Source of the DNA: Pyrinomonadaceae bacterium
GTDB lineage: Bacteria > Acidobacteriota > Blastocatellia > Pyrinomonadales > Pyrinomonadaceae
NCBI GenBank assembly: GCA_041745765.1
Contig: JBGTIH010000062.1
Span: forward strand, 595-64,594
DNA: 64,000 bases
Reading direction: 5' to 3'
Below the pieces are notes generated by a model, which was not told the origin of the DNA, did not search any database, and saw only the letters and a list, made by a program, of their open reading frames with translations. Below are positions 13,815 through 25,001 of the stretch, one piece after another (position 1 is the first letter of the stretch; each line of letters opens with the position of its first letter). A program made the position numbers and the translations under genes.

Positions 13815-15767
13815 ATGAAAATTGCATCATTTGACGAAATTATCGAACCGAACGATCAGACCGAAGCGCGGCGCGTTCATCTGGAAAAATTGCGGACGTT
13901 GGTCGGAAATGTTTATCCGAATAAATTTGAACGCTCGAAAGTTTCCGGTGAGGAAGACACGATCACGAATCTCGTAAAATTCGCGCCCGTTGCGGAAATT
14001 GTCAGGCAATTAAAGGACAACACGCCCGAAGGCGCGAAACCGGATCAGGAATTAAAGGCAAAACTCAACGAAAAATTAAATGAATTCGGCAGCGTCAGAA
14101 TTTCGGGAAGATTGGCGGTTCCGCCGCGCGTGATGGGCAAAGCCGCGTTCGTACACCTCAGCGACGGCGTTAAGCGTCTGCAAATCTATGTTCGCAAAGA
14201 CGATGCGAAAGGGATTTACAACGGGTCAGACCCGTCTGCGGTAGCGGGCGGTTTAACGTCTGCTTCGGAAAGCTCGAAAAATAATCTTCAACCATCCGCT
14301 ACCGCAGATGGTTCTGACCTGAGCGGTTGGGAACTTTTCGGCTTTCTCGATCACGGCGATTTTATCGGCGCGGAAGGTTTTTTGTTTTTGACGAATACGG
14401 GCGAATTGTCGGTTCACGTTGAAACGATTCAATTTTTATCAAAAGCACTTCTTCCGATGCCGGACAAGATGCACGGAATTGCCGATCCCGAATTGCAGCG
14501 CAGGTTTCGTTATGCCGATCTGATCGCGTCGAGTTTGCAGATCGAACACGAAGGTTTAACGACGCGCGAGGTTTTCGAACGCCGCGCCAAACTTATCAGC
14601 GGAATGCGGCAGTTTCTCGATTCGCACGGCTACATCGAAGTCGAAACGCCGATGCTCACGCCGAAAGCGACAGGCGCGGCGGCGACTCCGTTTGAAACGC
14701 ATCACAACGCGCTCGATATTCCTCTATACGCGCGAATCGCGCCCGAACTTTACTGAAAAAGATTAACGGTCGGCGGTTTTGAAAAGGTTTACGAACTCAA
14801 CCGCAATTTTCGCAATGAAGGTTTGTCGCACAAACACAATCCCGAATTCACGATGCTGGAATTCTACTGCGCTTATATGGATGTCAACGGGATGATGGAT
14901 TTCGCCGAAGCGATGATTAAAGAATCGGTACAGAAAGCGACGGGCGGAAGTTTGGTTGTAAATTACGACGGTAGAGAGATTGATTTTTCAAAGTTTAAAA
15001 GATTGTCAATGATTGATGCCATAATCTCAAAAATGCCTAATTTATTAAAATGGGCAAGCCTTATTAAGGACAGAGACGAGTCAAGTCCTCTAAACTCGAA
15101 AGTGAAAGAACAATTTAATCCTAAAATGATTTTTGAATTATGGACATTGTTTGAAGAATATGCTCATGAAGACAAAGAAATTGTTTTAGAAGACGAACAT
15201 AAAGATTGTAGTGAAGGACACAAAAAATTCCAAGCATTTGAAGAAAAAGTTCTCGAAACTAAAAAGAAATATGAAGGAATTGAAATAACTTCAGCGGAAT
15301 CTGATAAAGACGTATTGGCTTTATTTGAAGATTTTGTTGAAGGAAACTTAATCCAACCAACCTTCATCATTGATTACCCGAAATCAATTTCGCCCTTGTC
15401 GAAAGCGTCGCCGGAGAATCCGCAGATTGCCGAGCGGTTCGAGCTTTTTATCAACGGAATGGAATGCGCCAACGGATTTTCGGAACTCAACGATCCGCAG
15501 GAACAGTATGCGAGATTCATTGACCAGATGAAAGAGCGCGAATCGGGCGACGCGGAAGCGATGGTTTTGGACGAAGATTATATTCGCGCGCTCGCTTACG
15601 GAATGCCGCCGGCGGCGGGAATCGGCATCGGAATCGACCGTTTGGTGATGTTGCTGACAAACAAACATTCGATTCGTGATGTAATATTATTTCCGCATAT
15701 GCGTCCGGTTTCCAGAGAAGAAGAAAGCGAAAATGATTCTGAAGAGGAAAATCAGGACGAGAAATGA
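13815..15767 (+). CDS. lysS: Lysine--tRNA ligase, class II. The reading frame is interrupted by one in-frame TGA (14754-14756), so the ORF track shows two halves.
   Basis: Both ORFs (13815-14756 and 14823-15767) are in the same frame. The sequence across the stop reads ...[45 protein letters not shown], which is the conserved class II LysRS motif region. Downstream motifs are also present ([31 protein letters not shown]). Confidence 0.9.
14224..14320. repeat. Palindromic dispersed element, copy A (inside lysS, translated in frame)
   Basis: GGTCAGACCCGTCTGCGGTAGCGGGCGGTT-36 nt-AACCATCCGCTACCGCAGATGGTTCTGACC. The arms recur at 51683-51788. Confidence 0.85.
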
Positions 15768-16657: not shown

Positions 16658-18187
16658 ATGGAAAACGAAGTTCAGGAAAGCGAAAAAATCGAAAATGTGC
16701 GCGTTTTGCGGCTGTGGCAGATGATCTTTCTCGGCAAGGGAACGCTTGTGCGCCAGCTTATTCACGCCATTATCAGCGTCGCGCTTCGTTTGTTTTTCCG
16801 GCGGATCGAAGCGGTCAATGCCGAAAACGTGCCGCCGGAAGGCGCGATTATTTTCGTGCTAAATCATCCGAACGGCTTGGTTGATCCCGCGCTCGTTTTT
16901 GTTTCGCTCATCCGGCGCGTTTCGTTTCTTGCCAAATCCACGCTTTTCGATATTCCGGTCGCCGGATTTTTGCTGCGGACATTCGAGATTTTGCCCGTTG
17001 CGCGGCGCGTTGATTCGGCGGGCGATATGTCGAAAAACCGGATGACGTTTCAGAATTGTTTTGACCTGCTCGTCAAAGGACGCTGCATCGCCATTTTTCC
17101 CGAAGGAATCTCGCACAACGAAACAAAGCTCCAGCCCTTAAAAACCGGCGCGGCACGCATCGCGCTCGGCGCACTCGGATTTACGGAAGAAGAAGAGAAA
17201 GAAAAATTTCAGATTTCAGAAAATGAAGAAACAAATGACGAAGGACAAAGGTCAAAGGACGAAACCAATCCAAAATCCAAAATCCAAAATCTAAAATTAA
17301 AAGTCATGGCTGTCGGGCTTTATTACACTTCAAAAACGTCTTTTCGGAGCGAGGCTTTGATTCGTTACGGCGATCTGATCGAAGTCGAGCCGGTTGAATT
17401 AGACGAAAACGGCGAACCGCCGCGCGAAGCCGTCTATGCGCTGAACGCGAAGATCGAAGACGCTTTGCGAAAAGTAACGCTCAATCTCGAATCGCAAAGC
17501 GAACTCGACACCGTTCTCAAAGCTGAAGCGTTGTTTTCGTCCGTTTACGAAAATCTTTTGTTTAAAGACACGCTGACGCAGAGTTTTAACCGTTTGCAAT
17601 CGCTCGCCGAAAAATACGCGCTTTTGGAAAAAAACGATCCGCAGAAAATGAGCGAACTCGGCGAAAAGGTAACGCGCTACGAAAACGCCCTGAAAACGAG
17701 CGGCGTCACGGCGGAGAGTCTTTCGGTTCTGCATCATCCGACATCTTATGTGTTTCGCTATTTAATCTTGCGCGTCCTGTTTTTGCTGATTCTCGCGCCG
17801 CTTGCCGTCATCGGCGCGATCATTCATTCGCCCGCTTATTTTTTCTCAAATCTTCTGGGGCGCACCGTGACGACGCACGACGTAGATGCTGCCGGTTCTT
17901 CGTCTAAAATAATTGCCGCGATGATCTTTATGCCGCTAACGTGGCTGATAGTTGCGCTTGTTATACTTTTTTTTTTCGGCTGGCAGCTTGCGCTTATTTC
18001 GATTCCGGCGACGATTTTGTGCGGTTATATCGCGCTTCGTTCGTCGGAAACGTTGATTGATCTGAACGTCTGGATAAAATCGGCGTGGCTTCTTTTTCGC
18101 CAGCGTGCGCTCTTTCTTCGATTACTCGTCCGGCGCAAATCTTTGCAGGAAGAGATCGGCGATATTATCGAAAAAGACGAGAGATGA
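16658..18187 (+). CDS. PlsC-family acyltransferase with a C-terminal membrane domain
   Basis: HX4D motif (VLNHPNGLVDP) and FPEGISH motif, with C-terminal TM helices. The ATG at 16658 is preferred over the TTG at 16646. Confidence 0.8.
   Translation: MENEVQESEKIENVRVLRLWQMIFLGKGTLVRQLIHAIISVALRLFFRRIEAVNAENVPPEGAIIFVLNHPNGLVDPALVFVSLIRRVSFLAKSTLFDIPVAGFLLRTFEILPVARRVDSAGDMSKNRMTFQNCFDLLVKGRCIAIFPEGISHNETKLQPLKTGAARIALGALGFTEEEEKEKFQISENEETNDEGQRSKDETNPKSKIQNLKLKVMAVGLYYTSKTSFRSEALIRYGDLIEVEPVELDENGEPPREAVYALNAKIEDALRKVTLNLESQSELDTVLKAEALFSSVYENLLFKDTLTQSFNRLQSLAEKYALLEKNDPQKMSELGEKVTRYENALKTSGVTAESLSVLHHPTSYVFRYLILRVLFLLILAPLAVIGAIIHSPAYFFSNLLGRTVTTHDVDAAGSSSKIIAAMIFMPLTWLIVALVILFFFGWQLALISIPATILCGYIALRSSETLIDLNVWIKSAWLLFRQRALFLRLLVRRKSLQEEIGDIIEKDER
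17243..17305. repeat. Heptamer arrays (CAAAGGN x2, AAAATCC x3-4) inside the acyltransferase gene
   Basis: ggacaaag gtcaaag gacgaaa ccaatcc aaaatcc aaaatcc aaaatct aaaatta, translated as GQRSKDETNPKSKIQNLKLK. Confidence 0.8.
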
Positions 18188-22880: not shown

Positions 22881-25001
22881 TTATTGTTGGTGCTGCCATA
22901 TAAACTTAATTTTTGCGGGCAGACTTTTTGTAAATTTGTTTTCGGCAATTAGTACCAACTCGCTGTCCCTTCTCGGCACTTGAACAATCAATTCCGAAGT
23001 ACCGTCAGTATTTTTTGATTTTTCCGTTGCGGGCAGTCTTACCTCGCGTCCGTCAATTAATGCTCTGACGGCAGTTATCGGTTCACCCGAATGATTACGA
23101 ATGTCATAATTGAGTTTGACGGTCGTGTCGGACACTTCTTTAATTTGCGGCGAATTAATTTTAATTACCGGAGGCAGTATTTTGGCAATGCTTAACGGCG
23201 CATCTTTACGATTGGCTTTTTTATTGGCAAGTTTTACTGCTGATGATTCATCAACGGTTTGCAGAATCGTATCAATTACGTCGGGTCGGTAAAAATAAGC
23301 CTTGAATAAATGATTCGGAAAAAAATCTGCCGCCGCGTCTGCGCCGTTGTTGACGTGCCAGCCGATCAGATCTTCGGCATCGGGCGAAGCGTCATAATAG
23401 CCCGAAGGTGTCCATAAAATCCAACGCCCGCTGCCGTCATTCGGCGCGAAAAACGCCATCAATTCTTGTCCGTCAGACGTGCGATGCCAGCGAATAGTGC
23501 CGTCGCCGTACATTACTACGGCAATTTTCCCGGTTTTGTCGGTATTGATGGCTCTTGCATTTGACGGTGAATGTATTTGCCATAATTCCTCTCCGTCGCT
23601 GTTATACAATCTCAAATACCAACCTGTTCCGAGCAGAAATGTTTTTTCGTCGGGTAAAATCGCCAGACTATGCGAATCTTCATAGTCGAGCAATTCAAGT
23701 TTGCGACCGTTCAAAGTCGGAGTTTTTCCTTTCCGCTTCCAATCACGAATCTCTAATTTTTTGGAGTTGATTCGCGCCGGCTTTAAGTTTTCCCTTCGAC
23801 TGCTTTCAAACTCCAATTTCCGTTCAGTAACTGAAAATATCGTCGGAAATTTATCGTATCGTTGATTTGCAAATCGAAATTGCGTCGCTTTTTCGTTGAT
23901 TAAAATACCTTCAAACGAAAGATTAAAATCCGCTGCTTTCGCATCTACAAAAACGTTTCGCCGACCGTTTGTATCTAAAGTTCCCCATCCCGCTGGACCT
24001 GCCGCTGCGAAAACTACACCACCGTCCGGCAGAGACTTTATGTCATAGATGGATCTGATTCCTATAGCCGTTTCCTGGAACTCGCGCCCGTTTGTCCAGT
24101 AGCAAATCGAATTAATCCCGGTTTTTATATTTCCGATTCTTCCGACAGCATAGAGCGTTCGCCCATCTGCCGACCACGTGACGACCGATAATTCACCGTT
24201 GCGGACATTACTTAAATCCGGTTCATAGAGAACACTTAAATCAGTTGAAGATAAGACTTTCACTTGCAGCACATCGGCAAAACCGACGGCGATACTCGCT
24301 CCGTCGGGTGAAAACTTAACTCCGACGGGTATTCCGCGACTTTGCATTGATTGTTTTTTTACCAGCCGCAATTCATCTTCATCAAGTTCATAAAGCCTTA
24401 AATAGCCATCGAACGAACTTGTTACCAACCGTCTGCCGGTCGAATCAAAACTTAAAAACTCGCCGCGAACCGGGTAATTTCTGTCTTCTCCGATTATTTG
24501 GTAATTATCCGTTTTATATATTTTGATACCGGAAGTAGGTGCTATTGATACACCTAAGTATTTTCCGTCGGGAGAATACTCGAGATGCTGGATCACATGC
24601 GGTAAATTTGTGATTCGCTTGATGATTTTTCCGCTTTCGCGGTCAAACAGATAAATACAATTTGCGTTGTCCCATTCATATCCGGTCCAGCCTCCGGCGG
24701 CAATCGTATTTCCATCAGGCGAAATGGCAACCGTAAAAATCTTTCCTTCGTGGTCTGTTCCAATTGGCGGACGTAAAATATTTAAGAGTATTCCGCTGGC
24801 AAGTTCCCATACTCGAACCGTTTTATCTTCCGAAGCAGTTACCAGATAAGTTCCCGTTGCATCTACGCTTACTCTCGATATTTTGCCGGTATGCGATCCG
24901 GTTTCAATCCTTAAAACCGGATCATTCGGAACTTGTTGTCCGGTTAGAGTGGTATTTGTAGGGAATAAAAAAAATAATAGAAAAAAGATTGTTAGTTTCA
25001 T
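22881..25001 (-). CDS. Secreted WD40/beta-propeller repeat protein with a C-terminal Ig-like domain
   Basis: 706 aa with a signal peptide and WD40 signatures (DKTVRVWELASG, DGTIRWHRTSDG). Confidence 0.8.
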   Translation of the reverse strand: MKLTIFFLLFFLFPTNTTLTGQQVPNDPVLRIETGSHTGKISRVSVDATGTYLVTASEDKTVRVWELASGILLNILRPPIGTDHEGKIFTVAISPDGNTIAAGGWTGYEWDNANCIYLFDRESGKIIKRITNLPHVIQHLEYSPDGKYLGVSIAPTSGIKIYKTDNYQIIGEDRNYPVRGEFLSFDSTGRRLVTSSFDGYLRLYELDEDELRLVKKQSMQSRGIPVGVKFSPDGASIAVGFADVLQVKVLSSTDLSVLYEPDLSNVRNGELSVVTWSADGRTLYAVGRIGNIKTGINSICYWTNGREFQETAIGIRSIYDIKSLPDGGVVFAAAGPAGWGTLDTNGRRNVFVDAKAADFNLSFEGILINEKATQFRFANQRYDKFPTIFSVTERKLEFESSRRENLKPARINSKKLEIRDWKRKGKTPTLNGRKLELLDYEDSHSLAILPDEKTFLLGTGWYLRLYNSDGEELWQIHSPSNARAINTDKTGKIAVVMYGDGTIRWHRTSDGQELMAFFAPNDGSGRWILWTPSGYYDASPDAEDLIGWHVNNGADAAADFFPNHLFKAYFYRPDVIDTILQTVDESSAVKLANKKANRKDAPLSIAKILPPVIKINSPQIKEVSDTTVKLNYDIRNHSGEPITAVRALIDGREVRLPATEKSKNTDGTSELIVQVPRRDSELVLIAENKFTKSLPAKIKFIWQHQQ

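Follow-up and report, generated by a model that had tools for sequence, protein, structure and literature searches.

Organization of the lysS locus

The window, by which the whole analysed stretch of 64,000 nucleotides is meant (G000:C62:595-64594), carries lysS, the gene for a class II lysyl-tRNA synthetase (LysRS). The gene begins with ATG, ends with TGA, and has a sole internal stop, a TGA that lies in the sequence CTT TAC TGA AAA AGA TTA (Table 1). As seen in the ORF list, and as the first-pass annotation had stated, the two ORFs flanking this stop share one frame; homology picks up directly after the stop without a frameshift, again in agreement with that annotation.

Table 1. Features of the lysS locus, in positions of the window
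Feature	Position	Strand	Remarks
lysS, class II lysyl-tRNA synthetase	13815..15767	+	ATG at 13815; 650-codon single frame if internal TGA is read through
In-frame TGA, codon 314 of lysS	14754..14756	+	Replaces invariant Leu of APELYLKRL, between class II motifs 1 and 2
Upstream ORF, 313 aa	13815..14756	+	N-terminal extension, OB domain, first 65 residues of the catalytic domain
Inter-ORF gap, 22 codons	14757..14822	+	Without ATG, GTG, or TTG before 14823; includes start of motif 2 (FRNEG)
Downstream ORF, 314 aa, TTG start	14823..15767	+	Rest of motif 2, enlarged insertion, motif 3, acidic tail; TGA at 15765-15767

When the internal TGA was read through, the translated product contained the class II catalytic domain in full, including motifs 1–3, the match to PF00152 extending over profile positions 18–307 of 308 with a score of 286 bits. 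In the upstream ORF, the PF00152 match was confined to profile positions 17–82, the stop itself falling on position 82, and the downstream ORF begins at position 107, so that positions 83–106 are lost. The OB anticodon-binding domain (PF01336) was recognized in the upstream ORF at residues 94–132 with 32.9 bits, above the cut-off of 27, and the match is then broken by a repeat-derived insert. The stop prevents the frame from giving one polypeptide, and as deposited, lysS is a pseudogene by annotation rules.

Escherichia coli LysS (1bbu) aligned with the read-through product at an E value of 2.9e-125; the alignment includes FRNEG and GIGIDRLVM and places RIAPELYLKRL at the site of the stop. The product has the same OB anticodon-binding and class II catalytic domains as E. 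coli LysS/LysU (1bbu, 1e1o), with motifs nearly identical around the stop. Unlike these enzymes, it has its frame interrupted at the Leu of APELYLKRL, and it carries an N-terminal insert of about 35 residues derived from a repeat, an acidic tail and, between motifs 2 and 3, an insertion that is enlarged and AT-rich. The closest database proteins, named lysyl-tRNA synthetase class 2, were 80% identical, and the organism names they bear point to the Pyrinomonadaceae (Acidobacteria). With this genome's own records excluded, an exact database look-up of the 313-aa product gave no match, and scanning metagenome and genome collections by pattern, with N at the variable base, likewise gave nothing. 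Because the nearest database LysRS is only 80% identical, no lysS allele of the same species was available for comparison.

Two further features of the gene were observed. A palindromic dispersed repeat at window positions 14224–14320 lies in frame within lysS and forms part of the N-terminal region of the translated LysRS, and residues 135–178 match further places in the genome, on contigs C55 and C100. The stretch at 14990–15340 is AT-rich, with a GC content of 0.29–0.32 compared with approximately 0.5 elsewhere in lysS, and encodes the enlarged insertion that separates motif 2 from motif 3 and is poorly conserved; alignments of LysRS to its relatives break at approximately residues 408–497.

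Codon 314 in related genomes

Thirty relatives, drawn from the genus, family, and class of this genome, were searched for lysS. Each had one locus, except for G005 (83% complete), in which none was found. Leu occupied the codon 314 position in all 19 loci retrieved, being encoded by TTA, TTG, CTG, CTC, or CTA, and none of the relatives with a lysS locus was interrupted by a stop at this position. In the closest relative, G003, the corresponding sequence is CTT TAC TTA AAA AGA TTG, and a single T-to-G transversion at 14755, which is G000:C62:15349, turns a TTA of this type into TGA. The comparison with sister genomes recommended in the first-pass annotation therefore places the TGA in this assembly only, and the proposals made there, that a conserved Leu codon had been replaced and that one substitution from TTA was sufficient, were borne out.

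Three relatives with full-length lysS (G002, G004, and G006) were used as references for dN/dS. The values upstream and downstream of the TGA were 0.23 and 0.24 against G002, 0.20 and 0.20 against G004, and 0.22 and 0.27 against G006. This equality on the two sides of the TGA indicates that the gene has not passed through a spell of relaxed selection. No lesion other than the TGA was found in lysS. It follows from the equal dN/dS and the otherwise undamaged gene that the TGA is either very recent or not real.

Lesions elsewhere in the assembly

The bin containing the window comprises 4.76 Mb in 206 contigs, with a GC content of 43%, an N50 of 37.6 kb, a completeness of 94.98%, and a contamination of 5.3%. 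Two copies each of pheS (79% protein identity to each other) and pheT (68%) were present, at C100:4949-8275, C191:88064-88822, and C66:12037-12552. Given these divergent duplicate pairs, contigs of a second related species, including at least C100, have been binned in, which fits the contamination estimate.

Lesions were counted by running the ORFs of a complete genome of the same genus (G002), after removal of shadow ORFs, against the whole bin with tblastn; 2.8 Mb (62%) of G002 served as the reference. The census yielded 1248 orthologs with 455,000 aligned residues and, after filtering, approximately 9–12 lesions. Three of them lie in essential genes at conserved positions, namely the lysS TGA, a TAG in glyQS, and a frameshift in argS. 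Among the remainder were nonsense codons at conserved positions in two PIN/VapC toxin genes (C55:31597 and C107:7552), a stop and a frameshift in a decayed IS transposase (C106:1200-2280), a TAG at a Gln codon in the gene for a hypothetical protein of 608 aa (C203:20759), and short-homopolymer frameshifts in two small accessory genes, on C153 and C109. The toxin genes, the transposase, and the 608-aa hypothetical gene are probable real pseudogenes. As lesions were few among the 1248 orthologs and most of those outside the essential genes fell into classes that are often pseudogenised, the assembly is not generally error-ridden.

Apparent frameshifts on C171, on C6, and at C117:8700 were not accepted as lesions. 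In the first case (G000:C171:46349-46370), exosortase and EpsI-like domain belong to two separate genes, where G002 has them fused in one ORF of 533 aa.

The glyQS gene, which encodes a class II glycyl-tRNA synthetase and lies outside the window, has a TAG at a conserved Lys position (G000:C117:28173-28175, ...NTSRR*LPFGIAQIGKSFRNE); the site is at approximately 1999–2001 in locus L167, and a TTG codon stands directly 3′ of the TAG. The gene is single-copy in the bin. Its product is 99% identical to that of G003, the two genes having 113 differences in 1374 nucleotides, nearly all of them synonymous, and purifying selection on glyQS has been strong. AAA or AAG was present at the site in all six relatives whose codon was read, and no internal stop was found in the glyQS genes of the relatives.

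The lesion in argS, also outside the window, is a +1 frameshift at G000:C191:23655-23695, inside a 7-nt repeat tract (GAATCCAAATTCCAAATTCCAAAAGG) that is one of the tracts of this kind in the genome. The break, at approximately 23660–23690, corresponds to the linker before the domain with the HIGH motif. The conserved blocks on either side are 31 nt apart, so that removal of one repeat unit would bring the gene back into frame. The gene is single-copy in the bin, and all 11 relatives with a match have it as one intact ORF. This lesion may be a real slippage allele, since a repeat tract of 21 nt is easily spanned by short reads.

Synthetase genes made up 1.5% of the aligned residues and carried 3 of the approximately 9–12 lesions (binomial P approximately 3e-4 to 7e-4, calculated post hoc). 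This excess is accounted for neither by random error nor by ordinary pseudogenisation. No shared motif of the kind that would point to systematic base-calling error was evident around the nonsense sites, and no stops were present inside the Pfam domain matches of the remaining synthetase genes checked in the bin.

Origin of the internal TGA

On balance, the G at 14755 is likely not to be the genotype of viable cells, the consensus being unrepresentative at this base. The true lysS would then read TTA (Leu) at codon 314, and its product would be an ordinary class II LysRS in one piece. Either a wrong base or a fault of assembly would have put the TGA into the metagenome consensus, or the TGA would be a rare dead-end allele captured from the sampled population. 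In either case, the lysS TGA is probably not real as a biological feature. What moves the balance in this direction is the state of glyQS and argS: a clone with UGA in lysS, UAG in glyQS, a frameshift in argS, and no suppressor is very unlikely to be viable. Because three lesions in sole-copy essential genes are hard to credit in one living lineage, the consensus would seem unreliable at such sites.

Spurious internal stops are a known product of assembler choice, sequencing platform, and coverage (Cooley and Wright 2024, BMC Genomics, PMC11017572). The present case resembles those described there in that a conserved, essential gene of a fragmented draft is intact but for a lone stop, near relatives have a sense codon at the same position, and the assembly holds other isolated lesions. 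It differs from them in that lesions are few (approximately 9–12 in 1248 orthologs) and concentrated in three synthetase genes. Several observations count against an artefact. The N50 of 37.6 kb suggests reasonable coverage, at which substitution errors in a consensus are rare; the lesion total is low, with most of the others in classes often found as pseudogenes, such as PIN/VapC toxins and IS transposases; and random errors do not account for the concentration in synthetase genes.

Possible readthrough of the TGA

A second explanation is that the TGA is the real, predominant allele and is kept alive by near-cognate readthrough, in which Trp-tRNA(CCA) would compete with RF2 at UGA-A. Codon 314 would then be occupied by Trp or another near-cognate residue, and a few percent of full-length LysRS would have to be enough for a slow-growing soil oligotroph. 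UGA is the leakiest of the stop codons. In E. coli reporters, its readthrough amounts to approximately 2% at 37°C and 4% at 25°C, with Trp-tRNATrp competing against RF2 (PMC10570021). The lysS stop has the same UGA-A context, and tRNA-Trp(CCA) is likewise the only near-cognate reader.

The only genuine tRNA-Trp in the genome, a tRNA-Trp(CCA) at G000:C55:8794-8869, has a U11-A24 pair and a weak G27.U43 wobble topping the anticodon stem, as read from its sequence; the other tRNA-Trp prediction, on C155, seems to be spurious. The substitutions G24A, C27A, and G43U increase UGA reading by E. coli tRNA-Trp (PMC13092985), and the tRNA found here resembles the Hirsh G24A and 4-bp anticodon-stem variants described there in its A24 and weak 27-43 pair. 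By analogy to these variants, it might make UGA naturally leaky in the genus. Readthrough is also in keeping with a lysS that is otherwise intact, the lack of a backup copy, and an assembly that is not generally error-prone.

However, the same tRNA-Trp(CCA) is 100% identical in G003, G005, and G006. Being unchanged in congeners with intact lysS, it is not adapted to the lysS stop, and a lineage-specific suppressor tRNA-Trp was rejected on these grounds. No stable, stimulatory RNA structure was found 3′ of the TGA, where the RNA is less structured than shuffled versions of it (z = +1.77; 195 of 200 shuffled sequences folded at least as well). Nothing points to programmed or conserved readthrough, the stop being peculiar to this assembly and absent from all relatives. 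Moreover, Trp would be placed at an invariant Leu of the catalytic core, a few percent of an essential enzyme would be a severe handicap, and readthrough of the glyQS UAG and a +1 frameshift in argS would be needed in addition. We therefore consider it unlikely that the organism lives by readthrough of this codon.

Possible hidden intact copies or real alleles

A third explanation holds that lysS is a fresh, real pseudogene and that an intact lysS is hidden in the unbinned 5% or so of the genome, on an unbinned contig, in a collapsed near-identical duplicate, or on another chromosome copy of a polyploid cell. The incomplete recovery of the genome (94.98%) and the mixing of contigs from two related species would leave room for such a copy, and lesions in essential genes, those in glyQS and argS included, would be able to survive if duplicates had been collapsed or the cells were heterozygous polyploids.

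A backup LysRS, one of the options listed in the first-pass annotation, found no support. No second class II LysRS was found in the whole bin, which is approximately 95% complete. The next-best matches to LysRS had only 31–32% identity; the open frames that hold them, 624 and 461 aa long, are taken from length and identity to be AspRS and AsnRS. For class I LysRS (PF01921), the best score in the bin was 19.9 bits against a Pfam cut-off of 27, and the match lay within a 982-aa frame of IleRS. With no second LysRS of either class found, and with the relatives also having a single locus (none found in G005), a backup is improbable within the recovered part of the genome. Selection downstream of the stop, furthermore, is not relaxed, and three independent hidden copies would be required to explain lysS, glyQS, and argS together. 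A hidden intact lysS is thus regarded as decidedly improbable.

It is less probable still that the three synthetase lesions are real alleles present at appreciable frequency in the population, acting as leaky or reversible knock-downs of tRNA charging that are tolerated or even favoured in a slow-growing acidobacterium of soil. Polyploid heterozygosity might be the cause in such a case, or the lesions might offer a way into stringent-response dormancy, and the 7-nt repeat in argS would act as a slippage switch.

Possible purposeful decoding of TGA

Decoding of the TGA as sense, whether through selenocysteine insertion, a suppressor tRNA dedicated to it, or an altered genetic code, has a single point in its favour, the frame being open and conserved across the stop. 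Stop usage in the genome speaks against it. Of the 2395 frames that run for 250 codons or more from stop to stop, 1557 ended with TAA, 499 (approximately 21%) with TGA, and 339 with TAG; lysS itself ends with TGA, and the gene ends at 15765-15767 and 18185-18187, which the first-pass annotation had cited as examples, are both real. Pairs of long ORFs in the same frame split by a single stop numbered 139 for TAA, 33 for TGA, and 28 for TAG; TGA-split pairs are not in excess, and the proportions follow overall stop use.

Two release factors with a PCRF domain were found in the genome, consistent with RF1 and RF2. ARAGORN predicted approximately 40 tRNAs in the genome, none with a UCA or CUA anticodon and none of them a tRNA-Sec. 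Among the 1248 orthologs, no well-conserved gene apart from lysS had a TGA in frame at a conserved position. Neither the loss of RF2 together with a UCA-anticodon tRNA, nor the combination of many conserved in-frame TGAs with rare TGA terminators, by which codes with TGA as sense (tables 4 and 25) would be recognized, was thus observed. Stop usage and the ortholog census, together with the release factors and tRNAs present, led to the rejection of a code change, and the earlier view that TGA is not reassigned genome-wide holds.

Selenocysteine was likewise rejected: the homologues have Leu at the site, not Cys or selenocysteine (nor Trp or Gly), tRNA-Sec is absent from the predictions, and no SECIS-like hairpin was found after the TGA. 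Purposeful decoding in any of these forms is already largely refuted and is judged extremely unlikely.

A possible two-piece LysRS

Split synthetases occur naturally, as in the LeuRS of Aquifex and the AlaRS of Nanoarchaeum, and the tandem ORFs of lysS are of similar size, so that 313-aa and 314-aa products made separately and then reassembling may be envisaged. Beyond the stop, however, no ATG, GTG, or TTG occurs until the TTG at 14823, 22 codons downstream, and no convincing ribosome-binding site was seen by eye before 14823 or 14853. Because the 22 residues that start motif 2 are encoded by neither ORF, a functional LysRS in two pieces would be unlikely on sequence grounds, and as the two ORFs together do not encode every catalytic motif in full and no relative has a split gene, a naturally divided enzyme is scarcely believable here.

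Implications

If the TGA is an artefact, as we favour, the finding serves mainly as a quality flag: in this GTDB species representative, automated annotation will label three or more essential synthetase genes as pseudogenes. Inference of metabolism or of essential genes from this bin needs care, given the broken synthetase genes and the contigs of a second species. If the G is true, then together with the lesions in glyQS and argS it would mark a rare natural organism that lives with premature stops in essential, sole-copy translation genes, and stop-codon leakiness in Acidobacteria, or heterozygous polyploidy, would become directly testable.
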